This document shows positions 11,777 through 61,176 of a stretch of DNA of 64,000 nucleotides, one piece after another (positions within the stretch are counted from its first letter, which is position 1; the number at the start of each line of letters is the position of its first letter). A program made the position numbers and the translations under genes. The DNA is taken from assembly GCA_945865925.1 (NCBI GenBank), contig CAMBFG010000001.1, positions 142,854-206,853 on the forward strand, in the 5' to 3' direction. Under the pieces are notes generated by a model. The model was given only the letters and a program-made list of their open reading frames with translations. It ran no database searches and was not told the DNA's origin. Origin of the DNA: Dehalococcoides mccartyi (lineage in GTDB: Bacteria > Chloroflexota > Dehalococcoidia > UBA2979).

Positions 11777-11870
11777 GGCAAGGCGGTGCGGCACGGCGTC
11801 CTCGATAGGCGGTTGGGAAGGCGATCGTACCGCGCCGGGCGTTACGCTCCTCGCTGATTGGGAGGGCGCG

Positions 11871-12803
11871 ATGCGGCACGTGCTGGCGGCGGACATCGGC
11901 GGGACGCACATGCGCGCCGCCGTCGTGCGGGAAGACAGCGCGATCCTTGCGCGGGTCAGTGCGCCCACCCTGCCCGGCGAGGGTTTCGATGCCGCCACGG
12001 AGCACCTCTCGCTGCTGTTCCAGCAAGTCGCGGCACGCGCCCTCGCGCCTGACCTCCTCGCCATCGGGATCTCGACCGCCGGCCCGGTCGATCCCACGGA
12101 TGGCACCTACCGCCACCCGCCCAATCTCGAGGGCTGGGACGGTCGCTCGATGATCCCCATGCTGACCGACCACCTGGGGATGCCCGTGCGGGTCGGGCAC
12201 GATGCCACGCTCGCGGCGCTGGCTGAGACGCGCTGGGGCCACCGCTCCGGCGCGAAGCACCTGCTGTACGTCACCGTCAGCACCGGCATCGGCGCGGGGA
12301 TCATCGTGGACGGGCGGCCAGTCACCGGTGCCTCCGGCGGTGCGGGCGAGGTCGGCCACATGATCGTGGCGCCGGGTGGCGCCTCATGTGGCGCTGGCTG
12401 CCCCGGCTGCCTCGAAGGGAACGCCTCCGGCCGCGCGATCGCCCTCGCTGCGCGCGTCGCCATCGAGGGTGGCGCGCACACGATCCTCATGACGGATGCC
12501 GACGCTGCCGCCGTGTTCGCCGCTGCCGAGGCGGGCGACAGCGTCGCGGACGCGATCGTCGAGGGGGCAATGGGGCACCTCGCGGCGGGGATCGCGGGGC
12601 TGCTCGCGATCTTCGACCCGGAGGTGATCATCCTCGGCGGTGGGGTCGCGGAGGGATTTGTGACCCGCTGGGACGCACTGATCGCCGCGATCCAGGAGCG
12701 CGCGCTGCCGCGCTACGCCTCGGGCGTCCCGGTCGAACGCACCACGCTCGGGGACGAGGTCGGCCTGCTGGGCGCGGCGCTCTGGGCGCTGGGCGAGGAG
12801 TAG
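11871..12803 (+). CDS. ROK-family sugar kinase (glucokinase-like)
   Basis: MRHVLAADIGGTHMR ATP-binding N-terminus. ROK zinc motif GHM...CGAGCPGCLEG. ATG at 11871. Confidence 0.8.
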   Translation: MRHVLAADIGGTHMRAAVVREDSAILARVSAPTLPGEGFDAATEHLSLLFQQVAARALAPDLLAIGISTAGPVDPTDGTYRHPPNLEGWDGRSMIPMLTDHLGMPVRVGHDATLAALAETRWGHRSGAKHLLYVTVSTGIGAGIIVDGRPVTGASGGAGEVGHMIVAPGGASCGAGCPGCLEGNASGRAIALAARVAIEGGAHTILMTDADAAAVFAAAEAGDSVADAIVEGAMGHLAAGIAGLLAIFDPEVIILGGGVAEGFVTRWDALIAAIQERALPRYASGVPVERTTLGDEVGLLGAALWALGEE

Positions 12804-14492: not shown

Positions 14493-15842
14493 CTACGGCG
14501 TGAGCACGAGGATCTCGGCGGTGTAGCCGACCTGGCGCCACCAATCCCCACCCTCGTCAGCACTGGCGAACCAGATGTCGCGATGACTCCTGGTGACCCC
14601 GCCGCCCGTGTCCTTGCAGATGTACACCCGGTTCAGCGGGTCTCCCACGATGAGGAATCGCTGCCCCATGTAGGCCGAGGCGCACGACGCGGCGCCGGCA
14701 TGGACGCGTTCGCCGTTCGCCATGTAGCCACAGAAGCCGCCGCCGTCGCCCACAGCGCCGGAACGGACGCCCGGTGAGCAGTAGTAGAACGTGACGGTCG
14801 CGACTCCGTACGAAACGGTGTTCGATGCGCCTGTCGGGACGGGCGCCGCGACCGGCGCCGGGGGCGCGCTTGCGGTGGGCACAGGCGTGGAGGCCGCTGG
14901 GGTGATCGTGGCGAGAGCGCCCGTTCGCTTCACGAACACGACGCTATCCGCGGCCAGCAAGCCACTGGTCAGCGAGTTGGCGAAGCCGGGGGCACCCGCG
15001 ATATAGGAGAGCCAGCGCTGGCTACCCGGCTCCCACATGCTGACTGACTCAACCGGGAAGGCCTGCGCGGCCACCAGAGCGGCGAGGTCGCTCGTCCCCG
15101 CCAGTCCAACTGTCGTGCCGCTAACCGCCGGTGCCGTGAAGGCGACAGCCATCCCACCGCCCGAGGCAGCCGCAACGGGCGCTGGGAGCGTCGTTGGGAG
15201 GTCGCCCTGGCGGCGGATGAAGACGGCGCTGTTCAGCGGCAGCGGATCCTCGCCGATGGTGTTGAACGGGGAACCGGGGATGTAGGTCAGGAAGCGCCGG
15301 GTAGCCGTGTCGTAGACGGCGAGCGAGGTGACCTCGAACGCCTGGGCCGCGACCACCGCGCGAGGTGACAGTCCGCTCACCAGGCCAACCGTGAGCCCTC
15401 CAGCCGGGGGTAGGCGGCTCGGCAGGGCGATGCTGGCCCGACTGGCGGTGACGGTCGCTGCCGGGATTGCCACTGAGGTTGCCGCTGTCGGGACGGGCGC
15501 GGCCACCGGGGTGCCGCTGTCCGTCGTCAGGTACTGCGCCGCGGACCAGCCGACCGTCTCGCCCCAACGGACGAGCGTCCACGCGAGTCCATCGGCCGTA
15601 GCCTGCTGCCCGGCGTCCACGACCAGCGTGCCGTCCGGGATACAGCCGATGGCGGGGCCAGCGAGGCCAGCGCTCGCGCGCATCCGCAAGCAGTCGCCCT
15701 GCGCGCTCACCCGGAGGTTCGAGGCGGCCTCGATGGCCGGTGGCGCGGCCGCCAGGGCGGCGACGAGGAGCACGGCGACAACGAAACCGGCGGAGATCCG
15801 CCGGTGACGGGGTGCGAACAGATGTACGAAGTTGTTTAACAT
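14493..15842 (-). CDS. secreted SH3b + 3D-domain cell-wall protein
   Basis: Signal peptide (RRISAGFVVAVLLVAALAAAPPAIEA). SH3b-like segment. C-terminal 3D/MltA-like domain (CKDTGGGVTRSHRDIWFASADEGGDWW). Confidence 0.65.
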   Translation of the reverse strand: MLNNFVHLFAPRHRRISAGFVVAVLLVAALAAAPPAIEAASNLRVSAQGDCLRMRASAGLAGPAIGCIPDGTLVVDAGQQATADGLAWTLVRWGETVGWSAAQYLTTDSGTPVAAPVPTAATSVAIPAATVTASRASIALPSRLPPAGGLTVGLVSGLSPRAVVAAQAFEVTSLAVYDTATRRFLTYIPGSPFNTIGEDPLPLNSAVFIRRQGDLPTTLPAPVAAASGGGMAVAFTAPAVSGTTVGLAGTSDLAALVAAQAFPVESVSMWEPGSQRWLSYIAGAPGFANSLTSGLLAADSVVFVKRTGALATITPAASTPVPTASAPPAPVAAPVPTGASNTVSYGVATVTFYYCSPGVRSGAVGDGGGFCGYMANGERVHAGAASCASAYMGQRFLIVGDPLNRVYICKDTGGGVTRSHRDIWFASADEGGDWWRQVGYTAEILVLTP

Positions 15843-25231: not shown

Positions 25232-26086
25232 ATGGACACGAGACCCCTCGTCCTCCCCGACTTCGAGGCCTTCCCGCACGCTGTAGTGCTCGACCTGGAC
25301 GGCACGCTGCTCGACCCCGACGTCAAATTCCGACCTCGGAGCCGCGCAGCCGTCGAAGCATTGTTAGCGCGTGAGGTCCCGGTGATCGTCGCGACTGCGA
25401 GGCCGGTGCGGACGGTCCGGATGCTGCTCGGCGAGCCGCTGCTGGAACGCGTTGCCCTCGTGCAGATGAACGGCAGCGCGTTCCGGCACGCGGGGGGCTT
25501 GCATACCGCGGTCGCACCGTTTCCAGCAGAGATAGTGCGACGCATCGCCGCACTTGCCGCGGCCCACCTGCCGGCGGCTCGCGTGATCGCCGAGATCGAA
25601 GGGGACGCGTTCGGCTGCGACACTCCGCTCACGCCGGAAATGCTGTGGCAGACCAACTGGGCGACGCCAGACATGGTGATGCCCGTTCATGCGGCAGCCG
25701 ATCGAGGCGCCGCGAAGGTCGCGATCAACGGTCTCAACCAGGCCGTGGGCGACCTCGTGGCACGGATCCGCGAGGAGTTGGGTGAACACGTCGAGGTCAT
25801 CGCGGAAGGCAGCGGGACGTTCGCGAACGTGGTCCCTCGTGGGGTCTCCAAGCAGGCCTCGCTCCTGCGGCTGCTCGCGCATCCAGAACGTGCCGACCCG
25901 TGGCCGGGCATGCTCGCCTTTGGCGATGACATCGCTGATCTGGAGATGCTCCGACTCGCCGAGTGGGGCGTCGCGATGGCAAACGCGCATCCGGAGGTCC
26001 ACGCCGCCGCCCGTTACCGCACCCACTCCAATGCCGACGACGGCGTGGCGCACGTCATCGAGGGGCTGCTGGCACAGCATGGCTGA
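25232..26086 (+). CDS. HAD-IIB (Cof-type) hydrolase
   Basis: DLDGTLL motif I, Cof-like cap, C-terminal GDDIADLEM motif IV. Confidence 0.8.
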   Translation: MDTRPLVLPDFEAFPHAVVLDLDGTLLDPDVKFRPRSRAAVEALLAREVPVIVATARPVRTVRMLLGEPLLERVALVQMNGSAFRHAGGLHTAVAPFPAEIVRRIAALAAAHLPAARVIAEIEGDAFGCDTPLTPEMLWQTNWATPDMVMPVHAAADRGAAKVAINGLNQAVGDLVARIREELGEHVEVIAEGSGTFANVVPRGVSKQASLLRLLAHPERADPWPGMLAFGDDIADLEMLRLAEWGVAMANAHPEVHAAARYRTHSNADDGVAHVIEGLLAQHG

Positions 26087-26107
26087 TCGAGGCTCGGAGC
26101 AGGTCGG

Positions 26108-26875
26108 TTGCCTATACTGGGCAGCATGTCATTCGTCCGGTACTTCGCGCAGACGGTCTTCCTGATCTGCATCCCGATCTTCCTCGTGACGACGAACGTG
26201 CGTGTCGCCACCTCGTGGGAGGCGACGTACCACTACGCCTTCTCGCAGTACGACGTGCCCGGGGTGACGGGGCTCGAGCGGAGCGAACTCGACCGCGCGG
26301 CGACGCAGATCGTGGACTACTTCCAGTCCGCCCAGCCCGGCACGCTTCTCGACATCCGCGTGAAGCAGGGCACGGAGACCGCGCCGCTCTACAGCGAGCG
26401 CGAGGTGCTGCATATGGCCGACGTCCTGGGACTGATGCGCTTCGTCTTCCGCCTCCAGGAGTTCACGTTCATCTACGTGGTGATGTACCTGGCCGGGATC
26501 TATCTCTGGAGCCGCGAACGCTCGCTCCTCCACCTCGCCAAGATGTCGATGTGGGCGGGGGCGGGAACGGCGGCCGTCCTCGGCGTCGCCGCGGTCGCGA
26601 TGCTGGTGGGGTTCGATTCGCTGTTCCTGAAGTTCCACCAGTTGTCATTCGCCAACGACTTCTGGGCGCTCGATCCGGCACGTGACCGCCTCGTCCAGAT
26701 GTTCCCGCAGGGCTTCTGGTTCGACGTCTCCTTCGCCGTCGGCATCGTCACCGTGATCGAGGGCGGCCTCGTCTTCCTCGCGGGCTACGGCTTCCTCGCC
26801 TGGAACGACCGCCGCCGCCCCGGCCGCGTCGCCCCGCCCCAGCGGCACATCAGGATCACGGGGACGAGCGAGTAG
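26108..26875 (+). CDS. TIGR01906/DUF1461-family integral membrane protein
   Basis: Multi-TM protein with characteristic YxYAFSQYD and FHQLSFANDFW motifs. Confidence 0.6.
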   Translation: MPILGSMSFVRYFAQTVFLICIPIFLVTTNVRVATSWEATYHYAFSQYDVPGVTGLERSELDRAATQIVDYFQSAQPGTLLDIRVKQGTETAPLYSEREVLHMADVLGLMRFVFRLQEFTFIYVVMYLAGIYLWSRERSLLHLAKMSMWAGAGTAAVLGVAAVAMLVGFDSLFLKFHQLSFANDFWALDPARDRLVQMFPQGFWFDVSFAVGIVTVIEGGLVFLAGYGFLAWNDRRRPGRVAPPQRHIRITGTSE

Positions 26876-26885
26876 CGCGCATACG

Positions 26886-26912
26886 AAGACGCCCGGGAAA
26901 CCGGGCGTCTCG
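26886..26912. terminator. bidirectional terminator-like hairpin between convergent genes
   Basis: GACGCCCGG-GAAA-CCGGGCGTC, a perfect 9-bp stem with GNRA-like loop, between the 26875 (+) and 26931 (-) stops. Confidence 0.5.
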
Positions 26913-26930
26913 TTCGGCCTCGATGTCAGC

Positions 26931-27158
26931 CTAGAAGTCGAAGTCGTCCCCACCGTCGAGGAAGTCCTCGGGTTCGCCTTCGCCGGCGTAGGCGTCCGGG
27001 CGGACACCCTGCATGATGGCGATGCGGTTGACCTGGGCGCGCACGGCCTTCGTGGCCTTGCAGTGCGGGCAGACGGTCGCGTCGTCACGTTTCGCGACGC
27101 TGCGCATTAACTCGAACTTCTTCTGGCACTTCGCGCAGCGGTACTCGTAATTCGGCAT
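26931..27158 (-). CDS. FmdB-family zinc-ribbon protein
   Basis: MPNYEYRCAKCQKKFE...CPHC and an acidic tail. Canonical FmdB/CxxC_CxxC_SSSS architecture. Confidence 0.8.
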   Translation of the reverse strand: MPNYEYRCAKCQKKFELMRSVAKRDDATVCPHCKATKAVRAQVNRIAIMQGVRPDAYAGEGEPEDFLDGGDDFDF

Positions 27159-27202
27159 CGATCCCTCGGTCCTGTCGCCTGATCTCGATGTCGCCCCAGT
27201 GG

Positions 27203-28735
27203 CTAGTCCAGGTAATCCTTCAGTTTGCGCGAGCGCGTGGGGTGGCGGAGCTTCCGGAGCGCCTTCGCCTCGATCTGGCGGATGCGCTCGCGGGTGACGT
27301 TGAACTCGCGGCCGACCTCCTCCAGCGTGCGGGAGCGACCGTCTTCGAGGCCGAAGCGCAGTTCGAGCACCTTGCGCTCGCGGGGCGTGAGGGACGAGAG
27401 GACGTCCATCACCTGCTCCTTGAGCAACTGGTGGCTGGCGGCGTCCTGCGGCGCGAGCGCCGTCGGGTCCTCCAGGAAGTCACCGAGGTGGGAGTCCTCC
27501 TCCTCACCGATCGGCGTCTCCAGCGACACCGGCTCCTGCGAGACCTTCAGGATCTCGCGGACGCGCTCGGGCGGGAGCTCCAGTTCCTTGCCGATCTCCT
27601 CCGGCGTCGGCTCGCGACCGAACTCCTGGACGAGGCGGCGCTGGATGCGCACGAGTTTGTTGATCGTCTCCACCATGTGGACGGGGATGCGGATGGTCCG
27701 CGCCTGGTCCGCGATGGCCCTCGTGATCGCCTGCCGGATCCACCACGTCGCGTACGTGGAGAACTTGAAGCCCTTGCGATAGTCGAACTTCTCGACGGCT
27801 CGGATGAGGCCGATGTTGCCTTCCTGGATCAGGTCCAGCAGCGACATCCCGCGGCCGATGTACTTCTTCGCGACGGAGACGACGAGGCGCAGGTTGGCCT
27901 CGGTCAGCTGCCGCTCGGAGCGCTTGCCGTCGAAGATGATCTTCTGGAAGTAGTACTGCAGCCCGGAGCCGTGGGCCGTCATCATCTGCTCCGCCAGCGA
28001 CTTCGGCGGCGGGAACAACTTCGACTCCGACTCCACGAACTCAGCGGCGCGCAGCAGGTGCTCCGGCCGCATGATGTGGGTGATGATCGAGAGGCGGATC
28101 AGGGCGTCCTTCGCCCGCTCCTCGTCCCACTTCAGATCCTTGCGCACGGCCTCCAGGGCGCCCTCGTCACGCTCGCCGTCCAGCGTGCGGCGGAACTTCA
28201 CGTCCACGATCCGCTCGTGTACGGACTGCCGAGGCAGTTCGATGTAGCGGCTGACCGAGGCGTAGACGTCGCGCATGTGGTGGAACTGGCGGAGCAGTTC
28301 CACGTACACCTCACCCCAGGACGGCTCGTCACCGGTCTCGTCGCGGTACTCGTCGAGGATGTCCTCGATGTGCAGCCACTCCTCGATGGCGCGGGAGAGG
28401 CGCTTCTCGTCGTCCGCGGTGAGCAGCGAGACCTTACCGATCTCGCGCAGGTACATGCGGACGGGGTCATCGATGCCGGCGACTTCATCGACGAAGCGCT
28501 TGGTGGCCTCGTGGATGCCGCCTTCCTCGCGCGCGGCGATCGGATCCACCTTGACGGTGATCCCGTTCTCCGCGAGTTGCGAGATGATCGAGGCGAGTTT
28601 CTCCGCCGAGATCTCCGCGTCCGGGATCGCCTCCAACACGTCATCCGCGGTCACGGAACCGGAGCGGCGTCCCTTGTTCAGGAGCGCGTCCAGTCCGGCG
28701 TCCGCCAGCGTGGTCTCTTCAAATGCCTGTGTCAT
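27203..28735 (-). CDS. rpoD: RNA polymerase primary sigma factor (sigma-70 family)
   Basis: Regions 1.1 to 4 present, including [27 protein letters not shown] (region 2.4/3) and region 4.2 HTH. Confidence 0.95.
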
Positions 28736-30694
28736 CTACTCCACCTCTTCCCGGTCGGAGTCGCCGACGCTTGTTCGACGCTCATCACGGACGATCTCCT
28801 GCATGCGTTCGACCGTCGCCACAAACTCTCCCGCGAGGGCGGCCGACTCTTCGGCAAGGCCCTCGGGTACTACCCCACCGTGGGCGGCGCGGGCGGCATC
28901 GAGCACCGCCGCACCCCCTCTACGTGCTTCAACGAATTCGGCGGTGCGTTGTTCCGCCGCAAATCTGGTGCGCGACTTCTGGCGGCGCAATCGAATCGTT
29001 TTCGCCATGTCGTCCACCATTGCAGGGACGTGACGGGCCTCGAAGTCGCGGAGCGGTACCGCAGCCAATTCTTCGTATTTCGTGCGCACGAGGTCATCGA
29101 GGTCGGCGAGGCGCTCACCGAGGTGGGCGTCCGCGACCCAGGCCTCCCAGAGCGCGCGGTTCACAGAATCCTCGAACACCTCGGGGGCGAGTTCGAGGCC
29201 GGCGGCGCGTGCCTCCGGGCGGGCAAGCAGCAGGCACAGCAATTGCCCTTCGCCATCGAGGACGGTGGGGGCGGCCTTCTTCGCCTGCTGGACCTCGCGC
29301 GGCGTCGCCACCGGGCGAGGGGTGACCGGCCGGCCGTAGGGGCCCTGTGTCCCCTGCGAAGCGCCTCCCGCGAGCAGCGCGAGCACGGTGCGCTCGTCCA
29401 CCTGTCCGAGGCGTGCCATGCGCGCGACGTAGTGCGACCGCACGACGGGGTCAGCGATCGCGGAGACCGTGGGCGCGAGGGCTTGCAGCGCCTTCGAGCG
29501 CGAGCGGGGGTCGTTGACGTCCGTGCCGGCCTCGATGGCGCGGAACAGGTGGTCGGCGACCGGGAGGGCGGCATCGAGCATCGCGCGGAACGCCTCGGGG
29601 TCGCGACGGACCATTGAGTCCGGGTCGTCGCCAGCGGGGAGCGTCACAACGCGAATGTCGGCCTCCAGCACATCCTGGTAGGAGACGAGGCCGCGCCAGT
29701 CGACGACGGGCACGGCGGTGTGTTCCGAAACGCCCGTGGCGACCTCGATCCCGCGAAGCGCAGCGGCCGATCCGGCGGCGTCCGCATCCAGGCCCAGGAT
29801 CACGTTGTGGCTGTAGCGCTTGAGCAGCGCCATCTGCTTCTCCGTGATCGAGGTGCCGTTGGAGGCGACGACGTGCTCGAAGCCGTACTGGTGGCAGGCG
29901 ATCACGTCCATGTAGCCCTCGACCACCACGGCACGGTCGAGGCGGCGGATCGCGTCACCGGCCCGGTCAAGGCCATAGAGGTTGCCGCTCTTGTCGAAGA
30001 GCGGGGTCTGCGGCGTGTTCAGGTATTTCGGCTCGTCGCCGGGCTTCATCGCGCGGGCACCGAAGCCGATCAGACGACGACGTCCGTCCCGCGTGGGGAA
30101 CATCAGGCGGTAGCGGAAGCGGTCGTAGATGCCTCGGTCACCCTTGATCGCCAAGCCGGCCTCGATCAGGTCGTCCTCGCTGAAGCCGCGGGCGACGAGG
30201 TGATCGGTGAGGCTGCGCCAGCCGTCCGGCGCGAAGCCGAGCTGCCACGCACGCACGGTGGCGTCGTCCAGGCCTCGACGCTCCGCGTAGGCACGGGCGT
30301 CTCCGCCTTCCGCGCCGGCGAGGGCGGCCTGCCAGAAGACGGCAGCCGCCTCGTTGGCGGCGAGCAGGCGCTCGTGCTGCTCTCGCTCCTCGCGCTCACG
30401 CGGGGACTGCTGGCGCAACTCGACGCCCGCGCGCTCGGCGAGGCGTTGGAGGGCTTCGCGGAAGTCGAGGTTCTCGACCTTGCGGACGAACTCGATGACG
30501 TCGCCGCCGGTGGAGCAGGAGCCGAAGCAGTGCCAGGTCTGGCGCTCCGGATCCACGGCGAACGACGGCGTCCGCTCACTGTGGAACGGGCACCGCGCCT
30601 TCCAGGTACGCCCGGCTTTTTTCAGCTCGGGTACATATCCGGAGACGACCTCGACGATGTCGAGGCGAGATTTGACGTCATCGATCACTGTCAT
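28736..30694 (-). CDS. dnaG: DNA primase
   Basis: N-terminal zinc ribbon CPFHSERTPSF...HCFGC, TOPRIM domain, C-terminal helicase-interaction domain. Confidence 0.95.
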   Translation of the reverse strand: MTVIDDVKSRLDIVEVVSGYVPELKKAGRTWKARCPFHSERTPSFAVDPERQTWHCFGSCSTGGDVIEFVRKVENLDFREALQRLAERAGVELRQQSPREREEREQHERLLAANEAAAVFWQAALAGAEGGDARAYAERRGLDDATVRAWQLGFAPDGWRSLTDHLVARGFSEDDLIEAGLAIKGDRGIYDRFRYRLMFPTRDGRRRLIGFGARAMKPGDEPKYLNTPQTPLFDKSGNLYGLDRAGDAIRRLDRAVVVEGYMDVIACHQYGFEHVVASNGTSITEKQMALLKRYSHNVILGLDADAAGSAAALRGIEVATGVSEHTAVPVVDWRGLVSYQDVLEADIRVVTLPAGDDPDSMVRRDPEAFRAMLDAALPVADHLFRAIEAGTDVNDPRSRSKALQALAPTVSAIADPVVRSHYVARMARLGQVDERTVLALLAGGASQGTQGPYGRPVTPRPVATPREVQQAKKAAPTVLDGEGQLLCLLLARPEARAAGLELAPEVFEDSVNRALWEAWVADAHLGERLADLDDLVRTKYEELAAVPLRDFEARHVPAMVDDMAKTIRLRRQKSRTRFAAEQRTAEFVEARRGGAAVLDAARAAHGGVVPEGLAEESAALAGEFVATVERMQEIVRDERRTSVGDSDREEVE

Positions 30695-30765
30695 AGGTAC
30701 TTATTACGACACCGGATGGGGAGATCCGTTACGCCCAAATGGCACTGGAATCTGAGATTGACGTG

Positions 30766-31188
30766 TTATCGCTGGATCACGGGAATCTGGGGCGGCGGCG
30801 GTGGCGCCGGTGGCCGGTTCCGTATCCGTTCAACGGCCGCGGCCTCCAGCCGTTCGACTTCCGCGACCAACGCGGTCACCCGGGCCGCGTCAGCCTGAGG
30901 GGCATCGAGGGTGCGCACGATGCGATAGCGGGCGCCGGCGAGGTCGTGGACGACCTGCGGGGGCAGCGGCTTCTCCGGAGGCGCCCCGTGCGTGCCGGTG
31001 CCACCGGCCTCGACGACCGCGCGGTGCTCCAGGGCGGCGAGGTTGGCGAGGAAGCGCACGACGGTCTGCCCGTCTCCGAGATCGGCGGCGAAGTCGCGCT
31101 CGGTGAGGCCCTCGAGCGCGCCGAGCAGCCCATGGCGGGCGGCGTCCAGCCGGACGGTGAGGGCGGTGCGCAGGGCGGGGTCGATCAC
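30766..31188 (-). CDS. DinB/YfiT-like four-helix-bundle protein
   Basis: DinB_2-like pattern with a Pro-rich C-terminus. Confidence 0.45.
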   Translation of the reverse strand: MIDPALRTALTVRLDAARHGLLGALEGLTERDFAADLGDGQTVVRFLANLAALEHRAVVEAGGTGTHGAPPEKPLPPQVVHDLAGARYRIVRTLDAPQADAARVTALVAEVERLEAAAVERIRNRPPAPPPPPQIPVIQR

Positions 31189-31210
31189 GCAAGTGCCTCA
31201 TCAGCCTCGA

Positions 31211-32338
31211 TCAGCGGGGGTAGGTGTTGTTGCCGAGGACGGCGTCCGCGATGGCATCCGTGGAGAGGCTGACGGCGATCAGACTCATGTCCACATCGCG
31301 CAGGCCAGTGAAGGGGATCGCCAGTGTCCCGTTCGGCTCGATGGTGCCCGACTGTTCGAGGCGGTCGAGGAGCCGTGTGCCCGGCAGTGGCTCCCGCACC
31401 GTGATGGTGTAGACGCCGCTGATCGGGATGCTACTGCGGTTGCGCACGGTCACCACGAGCGCGGTCGCACCGCGCTCCACGTTCGCAATTTCGAGGTCAG
31501 TCGGTTGATCCGGCTCGACGATGCCGGTGAAGGTGTTGTTCGCCGAATCGACTTCGGTTACAGCCGGGTTCGTGGTGATGGTGACGTTCACGGTGCCGCG
31601 GATCTGGACGTACACGCCTCGAACTGCTGCTTGCAGGCGCTGGCCGGCGCGCAGGCCTTCGTCGCTTTTGCCCTCGATGGGTGCGGGCGAGCCTCCGTCG
31701 ACTGAGGCGAGGAGCGTGCCGCGGAGGTCGGCGGGGCCGAGGTTCAGCACGGAGACGTAGAGCCGGTTGTCCTTCACGTAGGCAGACTCGATGCGCAGGT
31801 CAGGGCGGTCGGATGGCCCAGCCGGTGCTGTCCGCGCCGTGGCCGCGTTCGGATCCGCCGTCACGGTGCCGATGGAGGCGAGGTCGATGCCCTCGACATC
31901 ATTGCTCGGCAGCCAGCCGACGAGGTCAGGACGGTCGGCGGCGGCAGCAGCGATCCATGCACCGTCCGGGGACCGACCGACGATCCGCAGTTGCGTGCGT
32001 GCCGCGAGGCGGATGAGCACCGTGGCGTCTTCGCGGGGTTCTGCGCGGAGCGGCGCATCCCGCTTGAGCGTGGGGCCCCCAACGGTCGCTGTGGGCGTTG
32101 CGGGCGTGTTCGGCAGCTCGAAGGGGAACCACTCGGGGCGCAGCGCGATGACGGTCCCAGCGACCGCGATGACGAGCGTCCCAGCAGCGAGCAGGAGCCG
32201 TCCGCCGCGACCACCCCGATCGCGCCGAGTGGCGGCACGCGCGGCGTTCGCCACGACCTCGAGGTCACGGGCGGCGTCATGCGGCTCGTCGTCATGGAGG
32301 AGGTCGTCCAGCGGCTCGTCCGGGCGGCGCTCGGTCAT
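31211..32338 (-). CDS. membrane-anchored SH3b + tandem CARDB-domain protein
   Basis: Cytoplasmic N-terminus, one TM, SH3b-like segment (RIVGRSPDGAWI), two CARDB-like repeats (PDLRIESAYV..., PTDLEIANVERG...). Confidence 0.6.
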   Translation of the reverse strand: MTERRPDEPLDDLLHDDEPHDAARDLEVVANAARAATRRDRGGRGGRLLLAAGTLVIAVAGTVIALRPEWFPFELPNTPATPTATVGGPTLKRDAPLRAEPREDATVLIRLAARTQLRIVGRSPDGAWIAAAAADRPDLVGWLPSNDVEGIDLASIGTVTADPNAATARTAPAGPSDRPDLRIESAYVKDNRLYVSVLNLGPADLRGTLLASVDGGSPAPIEGKSDEGLRAGQRLQAAVRGVYVQIRGTVNVTITTNPAVTEVDSANNTFTGIVEPDQPTDLEIANVERGATALVVTVRNRSSIPISGVYTITVREPLPGTRLLDRLEQSGTIEPNGTLAIPFTGLRDVDMSLIAVSLSTDAIADAVLGNNTYPR

Positions 32339-33114
32339 CGCGCACCGCCCGCACCGACGAGGAGCACGCGGCGGATGTTGTTGACCTCGCTGGACTCTTT
32401 CACGCGGTTGCCGCGGTCGACCTCGATCACGAAGAGCCCGGTGCTGCGCACCTCCACACCCGTGTTCACTGAGGCGGAGCGCCCGGTGGCGAGGGGGCGT
32501 TCGGTCAGGTCGACTTCCAACACGCCGAGGATCTCGCCGTCGGCGCCCGCGACCTGGAGGCCGACGCGGCCCGCGAAGGCGGCGCGACCCTCGTTCGTGA
32601 TCCGGACGGAGAGGTTGCCGTTGGGTTGGACGTCCGCGCTCGCGACTGTGAGGTCGGGCAGGGCGTCTGCCTCAGCGGCAGCCGAGCCAGTGGTACCGCT
32701 CGCGGCCACCTCGGCGGCAAGCGCGGGCACCGAGGCGAGGTCGGGGAGGCCGGCGGTGACGAAATTCGCGCGCGGCACCCAGCCTTCGAGGCTCGACTGC
32801 GGCGGGTAGACCACACGTAGCCAGACGGCGTCCTCGGTCCGGCCGGTGACGAGCGCATCGTGGCCCGCGGGGATCACGGCGACCAGATCCGAGGCGCGGG
32901 CCGGGCGGGCGTAGAGGTTCGAGGTGGTCGCGAGACGTGCGGTCGAGGCGGCCATGACAGGCGTCGCGGCGTCAACGGGCGCCGTGGCACCACGACCGCC
33001 GTCCGCGAGCAAGATGACAGCGATGGCGCCAGCGGCAACCAGAACGACGCCGGCAGCGGCGATGACGGGTGGGCGAGGGGTTCCGATCGTCCGTGCCTCC
33101 GGCCCCCGCTGCAC
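32335..33114 (-). CDS. membrane-anchored SH3b + CARDB-domain protein (paralogue of 31211..32338)
   Basis: Same TM-SH3b-CARDB architecture (PDLTVASADVQPNGNLSVRITNEG...EVNNIRRV). 4-nt overlap with its paralogue. Confidence 0.6.
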   Translation of the reverse strand: MQRGPEARTIGTPRPPVIAAAGVVLVAAGAIAVILLADGGRGATAPVDAATPVMAASTARLATTSNLYARPARASDLVAVIPAGHDALVTGRTEDAVWLRVVYPPQSSLEGWVPRANFVTAGLPDLASVPALAAEVAASGTTGSAAAEADALPDLTVASADVQPNGNLSVRITNEGRAAFAGRVGLQVAGADGEILGVLEVDLTERPLATGRSASVNTGVEVRSTGLFVIEVDRGNRVKESSEVNNIRRVLLVGAGGAR

Positions 33115-33153
33115 TCGCAGTCTAGGCGCGCGGCTTGTCGGGCGGCCAGACCG

Positions 33154-34194
33154 CTAGCGGATGAGCCCGAGCGAGTGCGCCTGCCAGAGGGCGTAGCCGT
33201 CCGTCATGCCGGAGACGTAGTCGGCGGCCCGCCGCCACGCCGGATCGTCCGGGAGCGACCAGCCGGGGATCGCGGCAGGGCGTGCCTCGTAATGGACGAA
33301 CAGCACCTCGACGACCTGCTGGCCGCGTTCGGCCTCCTTCAGGACGTCCGGGTGGAGGTACACCCGCTCGAACATGAACTCGCGGAGGGCGTCGGTGGCG
33401 GCCAGCACCTCGTCGGAGAGGCGAATGTGAGGGGCGGCGGCCTCGAAGGTCTCGACGGAGGCGAGGACGCAGTCGGTGACAAGGGCGGCGACGCGGTCGC
33501 TGTGAGTGCGTCCGAGGACAGCGTGGGCAGCGGAGGGCAACTGTGACTCGGCGATCAATTCGGCGCGGATCGCGTCCTGGATGTCGTGGTTGAGGTAGGC
33601 GATGGAGTCCGCCAACTTCACGATCTGCCCTTCCAGCGTCGAGGCGTTCCCCCACGCCTCGGAGGCGACGGAGTCGCGCGTCTTCGAGTGCTTCAGGATG
33701 CCCTCGCGGGTCTGGTCGGTGAGGTTGAGGCCGCGGCCGCCATTTTCGAGGAGGTCCACGATGCGGAGGGACTGCTCGTTGTGTCGGAAGCCCTCGGGCA
33801 GCAGCGTGGCAAGCTGCTCTTCGCCGGCGTGTCCGAAGGGGGTGTGGCCGAGGTCGTGCGCAAAGCCGATCGCCTCCGCCAGGTCCTCGTTCAGGTTGAG
33901 CGCGCGGGCGATCGTCCGCGCGACCTGCTGGACCTCGATGGTGTGGGTCATGCGGGTGACGACGTGGTCGGAGTCGGGATGCACGAAGACCTGCGTCTTG
34001 TGCTTCAACCGTCGGAATGCCCTCGTGTGGATGACCCGGTCGCGGTCGACCTGGAACGCGAGGCGGATCGGGTCGGGCGGCTCCGAGCGCCCTCGGGTGG
34101 CGGCGGTGTCGCGCGTGGCGAGCGGGTGCAGTGAGGCCTCGCGGGCGGCCATCTGCTCACGGAGACGCTGGAGTCGGGCGGGGTCCACGCTCAT
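33154..34194 (-). CDS. dgt: dGTP triphosphohydrolase-like HD-domain protein
   Basis: HD motif THTIEVQQVARTIA...GFAHDLGHTPFGH. ATG at 34194 (the ORF's 5' extension is non-coding). Confidence 0.85.
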   Translation of the reverse strand: MSVDPARLQRLREQMAAREASLHPLATRDTAATRGRSEPPDPIRLAFQVDRDRVIHTRAFRRLKHKTQVFVHPDSDHVVTRMTHTIEVQQVARTIARALNLNEDLAEAIGFAHDLGHTPFGHAGEEQLATLLPEGFRHNEQSLRIVDLLENGGRGLNLTDQTREGILKHSKTRDSVASEAWGNASTLEGQIVKLADSIAYLNHDIQDAIRAELIAESQLPSAAHAVLGRTHSDRVAALVTDCVLASVETFEAAAPHIRLSDEVLAATDALREFMFERVYLHPDVLKEAERGQQVVEVLFVHYEARPAAIPGWSLPDDPAWRRAADYVSGMTDGYALWQAHSLGLIR

Positions 34195-34203
34195 GAGGGC
34201 ACC

Positions 34204-34245
34204 GTAACGAAATGGTTCATCAGGTGATACCGAACCAACGTTAAC
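34204..34245. promoter_or_regulatory. imperfect palindrome in the dgt/ppdK divergent intergenic region
   Basis: aaCGaaaTGGTTC-atcaggtgatacc-GAACCAaCGtt with 6-bp core arms TGGTTC/GAACCA. Inner ATCAggTGAT dyad. In the most AT-rich stretch of the intergenic region. A TATACT -10-like hexamer lies at 34270-75 on the ppdK side. Confidence 0.35.
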
Positions 34246-34428
34246 CCTCGACTCAATCCGCCTCCGACGTATACTCGATGCTGTCGACCCCACCGGTGCG
34301 GCCGGTCGGGCCCGAGACGATTCCTCCCCACGTGACCCAGATTCGGCGGCTCGCCCGCCGCATCGCCGGTGCCGCCGGGGATGGTGCTGTTGCCCGCGAA
34401 CGGCCCGCGAGTGGAAGGTGCGCCTCAG

Positions 34429-37152
34429 ATGACCACCACGACCAAGGAGAGCGACGCTCCGCGCCTCAGCGAGCGGATGGTCTACTTCTTCGGCAAGGGT
34501 CAGTCGTCGGACGGGCGCGGGCTGCGCGACCTCCTGGGCGGCAAGGGCGTGGGCCTCGCGGAGATGTCCAGCCTCGGCATCCCGGTGCCGCCGGGCTTCA
34601 CCATCACCACCGAGGTGTGCAACGCGTTCTACGCGCTCGGACGGAAATACCCGGACGGCCTCGAACCCCAGGTGCTCGAGGGGCTGCGCCAGATCGAGGA
34701 GCAGGTGGGAGCGACCTTCGGGGACGCCGACAACCCGCTGCTGGTCTCCGTACGTTCCGGCGCCCGCGTGTCGATGCCCGGCATGATGGACACCATCCTC
34801 AACCTCGGCCTGAACGACGTCACGGCAGCCGGCCTTGCGAAGCGCTCCGGCAACGAGCGCTTCGTCTTCGACTCCTACCGTCGCTTCGTGCAGATGTACG
34901 GGGACGTAGTCCTCGGCGTCGGCAAGGCAAGCGACACCGACCACGACCCGTTCGAGGTGCTGCTGACCGCGAAGAAGAAGGCGCGCGGCGTCGCCGTGGA
35001 CACTGACCTCGACGCGGCGGCGCTCAAGGAGCTCGTCGCGGAGTTCAAGGCGCTCGTGCTGGAGCGCACGGGCAGCCCGTTCCCGGAAGATCCGAAGGTG
35101 CAGTTGTGGGGCGCCATCGGCGCCGTGTTCAACTCCTGGGAGACCCCTCGGGCGTCGGTCTACCGGCAGATGCACGGCTACCCGGACACCTGGGGCACCG
35201 CCGTCAACGTGCAGGCGATGGTCTTCGGCAACCTCGGTGACGACTGCGCCACGGGCGTGCTGTTCACGCGCAACCCTTCGACGGGTGAGCGGCGCATCTT
35301 CGGCGAGTTCCTAGTGAACGCGCAGGGTGAGGACGTGGTCGCGGGAACGCGCACACCGCAGCCGATCCTGAAGGCCGACTCGAAGCCGGGCCTGATCTCG
35401 CTCGAAGAGTCGATGCCGCAGGCGTACTCCGAGATCGCCGCCGCGTGCGAGCGGTTGGAGTCGCATTTCCGCGACATGCAGGACATCGAGTTCACCATCC
35501 AGCAGCAGCGCCTCTGGATCCTTCAGACGCGTGGCGGCAAGCGCTCCGGCGCCGCGATGGTGAAGGTCGCCGTCGACATGGTGGACGAGGCGCTGATCTC
35601 GAAGCGGGAGGCGCTGCTGCGTCTTGACCCGGAGCAACTCGACGAGCTGCTGCACCCGGTCTTCCAGCCCGGTAGCAAGCGCGAAGTGATCGCGACCGGC
35701 CTCGGCGCGTCGCCCGGAGCCTCCGTCGGCAAGGTCGTATTCACGCCCGGTGACGCCGTGCAGTGGGCCGCGCGCGGCGAGGACGTCATCCTCGTGCGCG
35801 ACGAGACCAGCCCGGAGGACATCGAGGGGATGAAGGACGCGCAGGCGATCCTGACGGCACGCGGCGGGATGACATCGCACGCGGCGGTCGTGGCGCGCGG
35901 CATGGGCAAATGCTGCGTCACCGGCTGTTCGTCCCTCGAGATCGACTACGCGCACCGCGAGTTCACCGTGGACGTGCCGGGCAAGGGCCGCGTGATCGTG
36001 CGCGAGGGCGACGTGCTCTCGATCGACGGCACCACGGGCGAGGTCATGCTGGGCGCCCTGCCGCTCGAGGCGCCCTCGTTCCCGCCGGAGTACGACCGGC
36101 TGATGGGCTGGGTAGACGAGGAGCGCCGTCTGCGCGTGCGCGCCAACGCCGACACGCCCGAGGACGCCGAGCGCGCGCGCTCGTTCGGCGCGGAGGGCAT
36201 CGGCCTCTGCCGCACGGAGCACATGTTCTTCGGCGCGGACCGTATCCTGGCCGTGCGCCAGATGATCCTGTCGCAGACCGAGGAGGAGCGCCGCGCCGCG
36301 CTCGCGAAGATCCTCCCGTACCAGCGCGAAGACTTCGCGGGCATCCTGCGTGCGATGTCGCCGTTCCCGGTGACGATCCGCCTGCTCGACCCGCCGTTGC
36401 ACGAATTCCTCCCGCACACCGCGACCGAGATCGCCGAACTCGCCCAGGCGCTCAACCTGCGCGTGGCCGAGGTAGAGCGACGCGTCGAGGGCTTGCGTGA
36501 GGCGAACCCGATGCTCGGCCACCGCGGGGTCCGTCTCGCGATCACGTACCCGGAGATCTACGAGATCCAGGTGCGCGCGATCATGGAGGCCGCCTGTGCC
36601 CTCAAGAAGGAGGGCATCGACGTCCACCCCGAGATCATGATCCCGCTCGTGGGTGTCGAGGCCGAGCTGTCAGAGCTGCGTGCCCTCACCATCAAGACCG
36701 TCGAACAGGTGCAGCAAGAATGCGGCACGGAGGTCGCGTACACGGTCGGCACGATGATCGAGTTGCCCCGGGCGTGCATGGTCGCCGACCGGATCGCGCT
36801 GCACGCGGACTTCTTCTCGTTCGGCACGAACGACCTGACGCAGACGACCTTCGGCCTCTCGCGTGACGACGCAGGCCGCTTCCTGCCGTCCTACCTGAAG
36901 CAGCACATCCTCGAGCGAGACCCGTTCGTCGAACTCGACCGCGAGGGCGTCGGCGGCCTGATCCGCCTCGCGATCGAGAAGGGCCGGACGACGAAGCCCG
37001 GCCTGAAGGTCGGCATCTGCGGCGAGCACGGCGGCAACCCGCCCAGCGTCCACTTCTGCCACGAAGCCGGCCTCGACTATGTGTCGTGCTCGCCGTACCG
37101 CGTACCGATCGCGCGCCTCGCGGCGGCCCAGGCGGCACTCGCTCAGGGGTAG
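34429..37152 (+). CDS. ppdK: pyruvate, phosphate dikinase
   Basis: N-terminal ATP-grasp, phospho-His domain (TSHAAVVARGMGKCCV), C-terminal PEP-utilising TIM barrel. ATG at 34429 preceded by GGAAGG. Confidence 0.9.
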   Translation: MTTTTKESDAPRLSERMVYFFGKGQSSDGRGLRDLLGGKGVGLAEMSSLGIPVPPGFTITTEVCNAFYALGRKYPDGLEPQVLEGLRQIEEQVGATFGDADNPLLVSVRSGARVSMPGMMDTILNLGLNDVTAAGLAKRSGNERFVFDSYRRFVQMYGDVVLGVGKASDTDHDPFEVLLTAKKKARGVAVDTDLDAAALKELVAEFKALVLERTGSPFPEDPKVQLWGAIGAVFNSWETPRASVYRQMHGYPDTWGTAVNVQAMVFGNLGDDCATGVLFTRNPSTGERRIFGEFLVNAQGEDVVAGTRTPQPILKADSKPGLISLEESMPQAYSEIAAACERLESHFRDMQDIEFTIQQQRLWILQTRGGKRSGAAMVKVAVDMVDEALISKREALLRLDPEQLDELLHPVFQPGSKREVIATGLGASPGASVGKVVFTPGDAVQWAARGEDVILVRDETSPEDIEGMKDAQAILTARGGMTSHAAVVARGMGKCCVTGCSSLEIDYAHREFTVDVPGKGRVIVREGDVLSIDGTTGEVMLGALPLEAPSFPPEYDRLMGWVDEERRLRVRANADTPEDAERARSFGAEGIGLCRTEHMFFGADRILAVRQMILSQTEEERRAALAKILPYQREDFAGILRAMSPFPVTIRLLDPPLHEFLPHTATEIAELAQALNLRVAEVERRVEGLREANPMLGHRGVRLAITYPEIYEIQVRAIMEAACALKKEGIDVHPEIMIPLVGVEAELSELRALTIKTVEQVQQECGTEVAYTVGTMIELPRACMVADRIALHADFFSFGTNDLTQTTFGLSRDDAGRFLPSYLKQHILERDPFVELDREGVGGLIRLAIEKGRTTKPGLKVGICGEHGGNPPSVHFCHEAGLDYVSCSPYRVPIARLAAAQAALAQG

Positions 37153-37928: not shown

Positions 37929-38645
37929 CTAGCGGGGAGCCCTCGCGTCCGCGCAGGCGGCGGAGACGGCGGCCAGGGCACGGTCGGCGGGGCCCCAGGA
38001 GTTCGCACGGGCGAACTGCATCGCGACGGTGGTGCCGGTCAGACACTCGTTGAGGGACTGGATGCGCTGTTCGGCGCGAGTGGTGGCTTCCTTCGCGGCC
38101 TTCGCCTCCGCTGCGGCCTTCGTGACCTGCTCACGCAGGCCCTTCGCCTCAGTCTCGGCAGCGGTCGCGCGGGCCTCCACCTCCGCCTGAGTGCGTCCTC
38201 GGGCGGCTTCGAGGTCCTTCAGGCGCTGCTGCGTGGCGTCGAGGGCGGTCTGCAGTTCTACCTGCTTCGCGCCACTGGCAGCAGCCGAGGACTGCGCCGC
38301 TGCCAGTTCGGACTCGGAGGCGCCACTGGGCATCGTCACCAGGATCAGCGCGATGAGCGCGATGAGGGCCGCGCTCCCGATGACACCGAGCACCCTTCCG
38401 GACGGCCGGTCGAGATGTGGTACGCGCGAGAGATTGGGTACGTGAGGCCGCGCAGATGTCCGCGATGGGCGGGGCACGGCCAGTCGCAGGCCTCGCGCCT
38501 GTGTGAGCACACCGACGGCGGCGGCACGGCTGCGCTCGACCGCTTGTTCGAGGCCGTTGGGACGTCCGAGCGGAGATGCTGCACCACAGAAATCGCATTC
38601 AGCGCGCAACGGGTGCAACGGTCGGCCACATTCTGCACATTTCAT
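37929..38645 (-). CDS. zinc-ribbon / TM / coiled-coil protein
   Basis: N-terminal CAEC...CDFC zinc ribbon, central TM (VIGSAALIALIALILV), long Ala/Glu/Lys-rich coiled-coil tail. Confidence 0.55.
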   Translation of the reverse strand: MKCAECGRPLHPLRAECDFCGAASPLGRPNGLEQAVERSRAAAVGVLTQARGLRLAVPRPSRTSARPHVPNLSRVPHLDRPSGRVLGVIGSAALIALIALILVTMPSGASESELAAAQSSAAASGAKQVELQTALDATQQRLKDLEAARGRTQAEVEARATAAETEAKGLREQVTKAAAEAKAAKEATTRAEQRIQSLNECLTGTTVAMQFARANSWGPADRALAAVSAACADARAPR

Positions 38646-47941: not shown

Positions 47942-48964
47942 TCAGACGGCAGGGGCGACGTCACGCCTATCGACGGGTAGCCCGAGGCCCTCGCTGCGGG
48001 CTGCCTCCGACGATCGAGCGCGGGCGAGGGCGTCGGAGATGAGTGTGCTCTTCCGACGGTGGGCGACAGCCGTGTAGATCTGCGTCGTGTCAGCCGAGGC
48101 GTGCCCCAGCAGGTGCTGCACGATGCGAAGGTCGGCGGAGCCCTCGATCAGGTGGGTGGCGAAGGTGTGGCGCAGCATGTGCGGGTGGACGAGGGCATCG
48201 AGGCCCGCCTGCATGCCGGCGTTCCGCACCATCGTCTGCACAGACCGGGCGGTCAGACGACCACCTGAGCGGTTGAGGAACAGCGCGGTCTGCGCGCCCG
48301 TCGCCAGCATCGGACGGCCGTCGTCGAGGTACCGGCGGATCGCCGTCCGGGCGGGGTTGCCATAGAGGCAGATACGCGTCTTGTCGCTCTTGCCGGTCAC
48401 GCGCACCTGGCCGTTCGCCAGGTCGAGGTCGACGATATCGAGGCCGGCGACCTCGCTGACGCGCAGGCCCGCGCCCCACAGCAGTTCGAGGATGGCGCGG
48501 TCGCGCAGGCCCTTCGGGGTGTCCTTGTTCGCCTTCTCCACCAGCGCGGTGGCCTCCTCCTGCGAGAGGAAGTGCGGGAGGCGACGCCCAACTTTCGGGT
48601 AGCGCAGGCGAAGGATCGAGTCGCCCGGGCGATTGTGGAGTGCGACACCCTCGGCATCCAGCCAGCGGTAGAAGCCGCGCACGGTCGCCGCACGCCGGCG
48701 GATCGAGGCGTCCGCCAACTCCTCGTCACGCAGCCGCGCGAGGTAGCCGCGGACGTCCGTGCGCCCGGCCGCATCGTGCTCGATGCCGCGAGCGGCGAGG
48801 TGGCCGAGGTAGTGGGTGAGGTCGCTGCGGTAGTTCCGGACGGTGAGCAGCGAACGGCGGCGGACAGCCTCAACCTGCGAGAGGTAGGCATCCAGCGCAG
48901 CCAGCGAGGCGGGCGGTAGTTCGACGGGGGCCGCAGGTTCCTGCGCGCGTGCGGATCGAGGCAT
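47942..48964 (-). CDS. xerD: site-specific tyrosine recombinase XerC/XerD
   Basis: R...HxxR...Y tyrosine-recombinase catalytic residues (HMLRHTFATHL, GHASADTTQIY). Chromosomal context next to topA. Confidence 0.8.
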   Translation of the reverse strand: MPRSARAQEPAAPVELPPASLAALDAYLSQVEAVRRRSLLTVRNYRSDLTHYLGHLAARGIEHDAAGRTDVRGYLARLRDEELADASIRRRAATVRGFYRWLDAEGVALHNRPGDSILRLRYPKVGRRLPHFLSQEEATALVEKANKDTPKGLRDRAILELLWGAGLRVSEVAGLDIVDLDLANGQVRVTGKSDKTRICLYGNPARTAIRRYLDDGRPMLATGAQTALFLNRSGGRLTARSVQTMVRNAGMQAGLDALVHPHMLRHTFATHLIEGSADLRIVQHLLGHASADTTQIYTAVAHRRKSTLISDALARARSSEAARSEGLGLPVDRRDVAPAV

Positions 48965-61134: not shown

Positions 61135-61176
61135 GCCTCGACCGGCGCGGACCATAGGGGCAGAGGGGGACCGCTG

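Follow-up and report, generated by a model that had tools for sequence, protein, structure and literature searches.

Clusters of the macromolecular synthesis (MMS) type have the layout X-dnaG-rpoD, with rpsU-dnaG-rpoD in Escherichia coli, yqxD-dnaG-sigA in Bacillus subtilis, and dgt-dnaG in many Terrabacteria as examples, and in the model operons internal promoters are known to serve dnaG or rpoD. Here we analyzed a variant of this arrangement in a 64,000-nt stretch of DNA from Dehalococcoides mccartyi (assembly GCA_945865925.1, contig CAMBFG010000001.1, positions 142,854-206,853 of the forward strand; genome GC content about 68%), hereafter the window. As in the described clusters, dnaG is followed by the gene for the primary sigma factor, with the rpoD ATG abutting the dnaG stop codon, and both are preceded by a dgt that is oriented like them. 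The locus differs from the described clusters in carrying three additional genes, encoding envelope-type and DinB-type proteins, between dgt and dnaG, which we call P3, P2, and P1, and in having upstream of dnaG a promoter-like motif that is unlike sigma-70 hexamers and restricted to this clade. Comparison with relatives indicates that this three-gene cassette is an ancient, clade-typical addition to a bare dgt-dnaG junction, vertically inherited rather than recently inserted. We hold it somewhat better than an even chance that the cassette is a lineage-specific accessory module in which P2 and P3 are non-enzymatic envelope binders or spacers and P1 is a non-catalytic adaptor. The three proteins are uncharacterized new members of the SH3b, CARDB, and DinB-fold superfamilies and are nothing categorically new. 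Literature searches returned nothing specific for dgt-dnaG-rpoD and, for CARDB together with SH3b, only irrelevant SH3BP/SH3BGRL papers.

The list of open reading frames (ORFs) on the minus strand gives the order dgt, P3, P2, P1, dnaG, rpoD, with P1-P3 filling exactly positions 30766-33114 (Table 1). An earlier note on this DNA had described three co-directional genes between dgt and dnaG and a 4-nt overlap of the two membrane genes, and both observations hold: the P3 stop codon and the P2 ATG share the sequence ATGA at 32335-32338, and the other spacers measure 39 nt (dgt-P3), 22 nt (P2-P1), and 71 nt (P1-dnaG). The upstream border gene, dgt, matched NCBIfam NF002327 at 426 bits (cut-off 393) as well as Pfam HD and HD_assoc, and its start is supported by the translation and by orthologs that are likewise 346 aa long. 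P1, P2, and P3 are real genes under purifying selection and not chance ORFs, since they combine the GC signature of coding sequence with homologs and low ratios of nonsynonymous to synonymous substitution (dN/dS). Their GC profiles at the three codon positions (GC1/GC2/GC3) are like those of other genes of the genome, with GC3 at 0.82-0.87, and we counted 25 homologs for P2, 41 for P3, and 68 for P1. Against three relatives, dN/dS was 0.07-0.23 for P1-P3 overall (0.07-0.19 for P3 and 0.12-0.21 for P2) and 0.03-0.075 for the flanking dgt, dnaG, and rpoD, leaving dgt versus L002 out of account.

The closest relatives of the window's DnaG among 185,579 species genomes were all metagenome-assembled genomes (MAGs) of Dehalococcoidia or Chloroflexota, and the actinobacterial setting from which the earlier note had argued was not borne out. 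Using tblastn and inspection of ORFs, we classified the dgt/dnaG junction, or slot, of 66 usable loci (loci are cited by L numbers and further homologs by four-digit P numbers), and mapped the slot states on a rough neighbor-joining tree of DnaG, a single protein and a tree that carries no support values. The window fell within a monophyletic group of 19 loci in which DnaG identity goes down to approximately 56-62%. Every clade locus with a readable slot carried the cassette there (19/19), 15 with both paralogs and P1 and 4 with one paralog and P1 (L004, L005, L082, and L083-type). Five further homologs looked up by exact sequence, the most distant included (P0088, P0025, P0024, P0070, and P0005), occupied the same slot in five of five cases, each time within the wider gene order given below, and in these look-ups homologs of the cassette were seen only between dgt and dnaG. 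More than 15 kb of gene order is common to the clade and the window, reading cmk-plsC-glmS-(x)-ppdK <-> dgt-cassette-dnaG-rpoD-Zn_ribbon_8-Lit-MazG-Trx9-DZR-pcrA, where the small Zn_ribbon_8 gene is placed as seen downstream of rpoD in relatives.

In a sister clade, the slot held a protein with a transmembrane (TM) segment, an SH3b domain, and a Pro/Thr-rich tail (L022, L023, and L025), a TM-SH3b-Pro/Thr-rich protein together with a canonical DinB (L027, L032, and L046), or a TM segment with a Pro/Thr-rich linker and CARDB (L024 and L029). In 12 other Dehalococcoidia loci, dgt abuts dnaG at a distance of 10-202 nt. Nothing at the block pointed to a genomic island or mobile insertion, whether in composition, repeats, integrase or tRNA genes, or patchy distribution: GC was 0.66-0.73 inside it and 0.65-0.73 outside, the only flanking repeats were short, imperfect, and at chance level, and no integrase or tRNA gene was found among its neighbors, which are housekeeping genes. 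A mobile-element origin was therefore rejected. A XerC/D-type recombinase gene at 47942-48964 lies 15 kb off in a housekeeping dprA-topA context. Because all clade loci carry the cassette in the same slot, within conserved synteny and free of mobile-element marks, it is best regarded as ancient. What had been taken for an unusual insertion is what all close relatives carry; the description of a split dgt-dnaG pair is right in that the two genes are adjacent in other Dehalococcoidia, but the addition is old and not an event in this genome. The cassette would then be older than the split of the two deep clades, or would have been acquired twice, and its later history is consistent with vertical inheritance accompanied by domain remodeling, one duplication, and occasional loss of one paralog. 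In two other Dehalococcoidia MAGs, the slot is taken up by another gene (7591-8004 in both L038 and L049), whose acidic 137-aa product is unrelated and shows no similarity to P1, P2, or P3, and the dgt/dnaG junction seems to take different small genes in different lineages.

P2 and P3 are true paralogs that arose by duplication, as the earlier note had proposed: BLASTP aligned them at E=1e-7 with 27% identity over 200 aa, and hhalign aligned their family alignments with 97% probability (E=3e-11, 183 columns over the SH3 domain and the first sandwich). At 27% identity, the duplication is old, predating most of the clade's radiation. Each protein contains one hydrophobic stretch. Since Lys and Arg are concentrated N-terminal of the TM segment (6 versus 1 on the C-terminal flank in P2, and 3 versus 1 in P3), we predict that both are N-in, C-out single-pass signal anchors of type II. 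On the cytoplasmic side, both proteins have short tails that show no clade-wide conservation; that of P3 spans approximately 6-15 residues, and that of P2 is acidic, 47 aa long, and carries a PLDDLLHD motif kept only in the nearest subclade.

Both proteins contain an SH3-like β-barrel that resembles wall-binding SH3b domains. SH3_3 (PF08239) matches were found in 22 of 25 P2-family members (best E=4e-7), PF08239 is precomputed for several P3 homologs, many P3 homologs carry both CARDB and SH3_3 matches, and hhalign aligned the SH3 regions of P3 and P2 at E=7.5e-9. SH3_3 membership is thus established by fold and at family level, with the window proteins themselves under the curated threshold. 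P3 belongs to CARDB (PF07705) by threshold, scoring 27.5 bits (cut-off 22.7; E=3.8e-6) over profile positions 2-99 of 101. P2 belongs to it by fold and homology only: its first β-sandwich scored 15.3 bits (E=0.023), under the gathering score, and CARDB matches were found in 13 of 25 P2-family members (best E=1e-3). The second β-sandwich of P2 had no match in Pfam and is probably a divergent internal repeat, because hhalign aligned it with the first at E=1e-4 (91 columns); the P2 domains aligned with the P3 CARDB at E=8e-5 and 1.8e-3. In the AlphaFold2 (AF2) model of P2, the ectodomain, with a predicted local distance difference test (pLDDT) score of approximately 85-94, consists of an SH3-like barrel followed by two β-sandwiches, and the CARDB fold is an Ig-like β-sandwich that superposes on solved CARDB domains. 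Profile and fold, this AF2 prediction included, therefore uphold the earlier note in assigning SH3b and CARDB, whereas its statement that the two proteins have the same architecture of tail, single TM segment, SH3b, and CARDB is accurate for the common parts but overlooks the extra C-terminal β-sandwich of P2, which has no Pfam family. We detected no catalytic domain in P2 or P3. Unlike the SH3b domains of endolysins, NlpC/P60 peptidases, and muramidases, those described here come with no hydrolase and are tethered by an N-terminal membrane anchor. Examples of CARDB are Pyrococcus PF1109 (3idu) and Methanosarcina MA_4588 (2l0d); here, in contrast, the domain is combined with SH3b and an anchor in proteins of 250-375 aa and not in large surface proteins or proteases.

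The start of P3 is probably not the GTG at 33114 but an ATC at 33087, which would give a protein of approximately 250 aa. This ATC begins 8 nt after a GGAGG, and the string GGAGG-CACGGACG-ATC is invariant in all six of the closest loci, the window included, as is GGAGGCACGGACGATCG. The five nearest of the other loci (L087, L088, L002, L003, and L019) conserve the TM-coding segment as protein, yet none of them has an ATG, GTG, or TTG in frame ahead of it, and upstream of an indel the loci differ in reading frame. Read from the ATC, P3 begins MGTPRPPVIAAAG..., in agreement with the MRPPTIAG... beginning of more distant orthologs. In L007 and L015, too, no canonical start precedes the TM segment, and CTG may be used there. 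Annotated close orthologs of P3 are cut to 215-236 aa and have lost the membrane anchor, because gene callers require canonical starts.

The AF2 model of P1 (pLDDT 91) consists of four long helices. Its first Foldseek matches were the DinB/DUF664 bundles 2ou6, 2hkv, 2yqy, the EgtB N-terminal domain, and 2p1a, with TM-scores of 0.59-0.67, probabilities of 0.95-1.0, and weak E-values (best 0.0099), and the best PDB match of the P1 profile by sequence was likewise the DUF664 protein 2ou6. The Pfam matches of the window P1 are at noise level (13.7 bits against MST, under the threshold of 27); across its family, weak MST matches occurred in 33 of 39 members and DinB_2 matches in 25 of 39 (best E=7.3e-7). 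P1 thus resembles the DinB/YfiT/MST (DUF664) metal-dependent thiol transferases in its four-helix bundle and in these weak but consistent matches, and departs from them in its missing His ligands, its shorter length of 140 aa, and, in most members, a proline-rich tail. The catalytic metal of DinB proteins is held by one His in helix 2 and an HxxxH in helix 4, and all three positions are replaced in P1. The canonical DinBs of the sister-clade slots (L027, L032, and L046) are clearly homologous to P1 and have the PxPQ[IV]vH.L core in common with it, and their AHLLATE and EHExEHAGQ correspond to ANLAALE and ERLEAAAVER in the P1 clade. An exhaustive profile search of 1.84 billion cluster representatives gave only 124 matches at E<=1e-3; of these, the approximately 55 best, from 50%-identity clusters, all have no triad, whereas more distant matches have it. 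On the strength of the model, P1 can confidently be called a four-helix bundle of DinB topology, but DinB membership fails on the catalytic triad, so that the earlier DinB-like designation applies to the fold alone. Lacking any hydrophobic segment, signal peptide, or TM segment, P1 is predicted to be cytoplasmic. Its C-terminal tail, RPPAPPPPPQIPVIQR, was considered as a polyproline ligand of the P2/P3 SH3 domains, a candidate we rejected, as P1 is predicted inside and SH3b outside the cell. The likeliest role of P1 is that of a binding or adaptor protein with no catalytic activity, one that would derive from a canonical DinB enzyme of the kind still found in the sister-clade slot.

Directly upstream of dnaG lies a conserved bipartite element, CGTAAC-N14-GGTGTC, accompanied by a TAnnnA-like hexamer that, when the P1-dnaG spacers are compared, stands in most loci 5-6 nt ahead of the dnaG ATG. 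An exact match to GTAAC..GGTGTC, at 30708-30732, occurs once in the window, against 0.22 occurrences expected by chance. The element is strictly conserved and confined to the stretch before dnaG: 25 of 25 clade loci covering the site have it at one and the same position, always with a spacer of 14 nt, and loci with the motif at this place are L002-L016, L019, L045, and L081-L088. Sister-clade loci with slot genes (L022, L024, L027, L029, and L046) have a related CGTAA[CT]-N14-G..GTT upstream of dnaG, and the motif is absent from loci in which dgt abuts dnaG. A position weight matrix of the motif found no other match of similar score in the window or, on either strand, in 1.25 Mb of loci, and its interpretation as a general promoter or regulon signal was rejected for this lack of recurrence. 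In L004, a short out-of-frame duplication of ATGAGCAC lies at 4078-4110, 14 nt upstream of the annotated dnaG ATG, and the distance from motif to start is longer there because of it. Between dgt and rpoD, a generic scan of the minus strand revealed no sigma-70-like promoter or intrinsic terminator, and a search of 26000-36000 against Rfam at E<=1 yielded nothing beyond two archaeal snoRNA matches, both sub-threshold, that we took as chance.

Conserved hexamers around a spacer of fixed length and unconserved sequence are a hallmark of promoters. We take GTAAC-N14-GGTGTC to equal AAC-N17-GTC, a layout reminiscent of promoters of the extracytoplasmic function (ECF) type, in which a -35 element with AAC is followed after 16-17 nt by a CGT/GTC -10 element; the window genes scanned included none for an ECF sigma. 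The position of the motif parallels that of the internal promoters of model MMS operons, and these features suggest that it is a candidate promoter giving dnaG-rpoD its own transcript start in these clades, although the TAnnnA hexamer could instead give a leaderless dnaG mRNA. P3-P2-P1 would form the tail of the dgt unit, with read-through into dnaG possible. The earlier idea that the cassette is co-expressed with dnaG and rpoD appears weakened, not refuted, because this conserved promoter-like motif lies directly upstream of dnaG. The simplest expression scheme would be a dgt-P3-P2-P1 unit, after which the conserved element would let dnaG-rpoD start independently, possibly leaderless.

As to what the cassette does, it most likely binds a polymer of the envelope, peptidoglycan or another, with no enzymatic action. 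A wall polymer, again peptidoglycan or another, would be kept near the membrane by the SH3b domain, and the rigid β-sandwiches, one in P3 and two in P2, would project into the space of the wall and the surface layer (S-layer). Translational coupling of the two genes makes it probable that P2 and P3 act as a pair. A wall is lacking in the best-known Dehalococcoidia. Since the window encodes MltG/YceG (59111-60202, plus strand; E=3e-79), a polysaccharide deacetylase (9718-10452, plus strand; E=1e-22), and GlmS, the first two being pointers to peptidoglycan metabolism, the organism probably makes peptidoglycan. Tepidiforma, a cultured member of the Dehalococcoidia, has a membrane, a 40-nm periplasm with a peptidoglycan layer of approximately 20 nm, and an S-layer, and peptidoglycan has been inferred to be ancestral in Dehalococcoidia (PMC10284905). 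A structural role is favored over signaling because the cytoplasmic tails are short and unconserved across the clade.

Several points weigh against an accessory envelope module of this kind. The SH3_3 scores of the window proteins, 19.1 bits for P3 and 16.4 bits for P2, do not reach the Pfam gathering score of 27 bits; SH3b ligands vary, so that peptidoglycan binding by P2 and P3 is an assumption; and peptidoglycan in this exact lineage is deduced solely from the MltG and deacetylase genes of the window. Homologs, all from Dehalococcoidia or Chloroflexota MAGs, are named only "hypothetical protein" or "SH3 domain-containing protein". The P0078/P0088-type subclade lacks the proline-rich tail of P1. 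The evolutionary account shares the roughness of the DnaG tree. Finally, a structural role does not explain why the position beside dnaG and rpoD has been kept in two deep clades despite domain turnover. That persistent linkage speaks for another function, wall-status signaling, in which P2 and P3 would sense peptidoglycan or the envelope and, through their tails and a P1 adaptor, modulate replication or transcription, for example at the dnaG-rpoD promoter, DnaG, or sigma. The layout of P2 and P3 does resemble that of RsgI-type anti-sigma factors, with a short cytoplasmic N-terminus, one TM segment, an extracytoplasmic domain of wall- or carbohydrate-binding type, a sigma gene nearby, and, in the sister-clade versions of the slot proteins, a Pro/Thr-rich linker; the motif upstream of dnaG is gene-specific and, as noted, ECF-like; the PLDDLLHD motif is conserved in the nearest subclade; and the P1 linker and terminal hydrophobic motif are typical of docking peptides. 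However, the neighboring sigma factor is primary and not ECF or SigI, and a Pfam/NCBIfam scan of P1-P3 and their families found no anti-sigma domain (ZAS, RsgI, or RskA type), with rpoD the only sigma gene nearby; nor was a sigma or other signaling domain detected in the three proteins. The tails that would transmit a signal are very short and poorly conserved, the P2 motif being missing in L006, L011, L004, and P0024, and the loss of the P1 tail in one subclade and the lack of an ECF sigma gene among the scanned genes count against signaling as well. We consider it unlikely on this balance, and clearly more doubtful still is a trans-envelope coupling in which the SH3b-CARDB pair would read the state of the peptidoglycan or S-layer while the P2 tail and P1 tuned primase or sigma activity or the GTAAC-N14-GGTGTC promoter.

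P1 may alternatively be tied to dgt and DNA metabolism as a damage- or nucleotide-related protein, with the membrane proteins as unrelated passengers. The DinB family is named for induction by DNA damage, P1 always adjoins dnaG, and the canonical His-triad DinB of three sister-clade loci lies directly upstream of dnaG. Loss of all three metal ligands nevertheless makes the chemistry of the family impossible for P1, and since the slot of five sister-clade loci (L022, L023, L025, L024, and L029) holds a membrane protein and no DinB, the membrane gene looks like the more persistent occupant rather than a passenger; we rate a link to DNA metabolism as improbable, marginally more so than signaling through the tails. 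Hardly credible at all is a recent three-gene insertion, possibly horizontally acquired and an oddity of this genome. The bare dgt-dnaG junctions of other Dehalococcoidia do imply that the extra genes are derived, but every clade member examined carries the cassette, down to the lowest DnaG identities, its homologs occur only in this slot, GC and GC3 are normal, repeats and integrase are lacking, and the paralogs have diverged too far, to 27% identity. An inherited accessory module with P2 and P3 at the envelope remains the account we prefer, and the strict linkage to dnaG/rpoD across domain turnover and the dnaG-specific promoter-like motif are its main loose ends.

Table 1. Features of the dgt-dnaG-rpoD locus; positions are those of the window.
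Feature	Position	Strand	Basis or remark
dgt, dGTP triphosphohydrolase, 346 aa	33154-34194	-	Upstream border of slot
P3, bitopic membrane protein, 259 aa from GTG 33114	32335-33114	-	ORF list, homologs
P3 probable ribosome-binding site GGAGG (33096-33100) and non-canonical ATC start (33085-33087)	33085-33100	-	Locus comparison
P3 predicted transmembrane anchor, residues 17-35	33010-33066	-	Kyte-Doolittle 19-residue maximum 2.84; conserved across family
P3 SH3b domain, ~residues 58-118	32761-32943	-	SH3_3 E=0.0015 (sub-threshold); homologs with PF08239; hhalign
P3 CARDB domain, residues 153-248	32371-32658	-	Pfam PF07705
P2, bitopic membrane paralog, 375 aa	31211-32338	-	ORF list, homologs
P2 predicted transmembrane anchor, residues 48-66	32141-32197	-	Kyte-Doolittle maximum 2.49; AF2 helix 44-66
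P2 SH3b domain, ~residues 90-148	31895-32071	-	
P2 first β-sandwich, divergent CARDB, residues 178-275	31514-31807	-	
P2 second β-sandwich, residues 276-375	31214-31513	-	AF2 pLDDT ~90
P1, predicted cytoplasmic DinB-fold four-helix bundle, 140 aa	30766-31188	-	AF2, Foldseek, family profile matches
P1 C-terminal proline-rich tail	30769-30816	-	Kept as RxRPP..PPP..[IF]P[VM][IV] in most clade members
Bipartite promoter-like motif CGTAAC-N14-GGTGTC and TAnnnA-like hexamer	30694-30735	-	Ends at dnaG ATG; locus comparison
dnaG, primase, 652 aa	28736-30694	-	Pfam Zn_ribbon_DnaG, DNAG_N, Toprim, DnaB_bind; downstream border of slot
rpoD, primary sigma factor, 510 aa	27203-28735	-	Pfam Sigma70 r1.1, r1.2, r2, r3, r4
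Conserved synteny block	~19685-47530; also L083-L085		Gene order (Zn_ribbon_8 seen in relatives)

Other genes of the window also drew our attention. A homolog of Lit, the lipoprotein intramolecular transacylase, is encoded at 26108-26875 on the plus strand (PF07314, E=1.4e-31) and adjoins rpoD throughout the clade. The enzyme is known chiefly from Firmicutes, in which it produces lyso-form lipoproteins, and its presence in Dehalococcoidia may bear on their lipoprotein chemistry. Between glmS and a gene for an ArsR-type regulator, a 238-aa ORF with no Pfam match (37929-38645, minus strand) encodes a CxxC...CxxC zinc-ribbon-like N-terminus and a single hydrophobic segment, and its C-terminal half is rich in Ala and Glu and coiled-coil-like. 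Three long minus-strand ORFs at 10901-12106 (401 aa), 14493-15842 (449 aa), and 60520-61728 (402 aa) have a gene-like GC3 and no Pfam match at E<=1e-4. A 753-aa PAS-GGDEF-EAL protein (3253-5514, minus strand) points to cyclic di-GMP signaling in the organism.

For annotation, two by-products follow from this locus, namely a conserved promoter-like element specific to dnaG-rpoD and a probable non-canonical start that makes gene callers drop the membrane anchor of P3. For the DinB family, P1 offers a clean case of the passage from enzyme to pseudoenzyme, with canonical and His-less forms sharing a slot in sister clades. The current view of replication and transcription is unchanged unless the signaling interpretation is true; were trans-envelope coupling real, wall growth would be linked to the initiation of replication and transcription in peptidoglycan-bearing Dehalococcoidia. 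What seemed an insertion into a core operon thus appears to be a stable, clade-defining arrangement in uncultured Dehalococcoidia, and the cassette supplies candidate membrane-to-wall tethers for the recently recognized envelope of these bacteria, with its peptidoglycan and S-layer.

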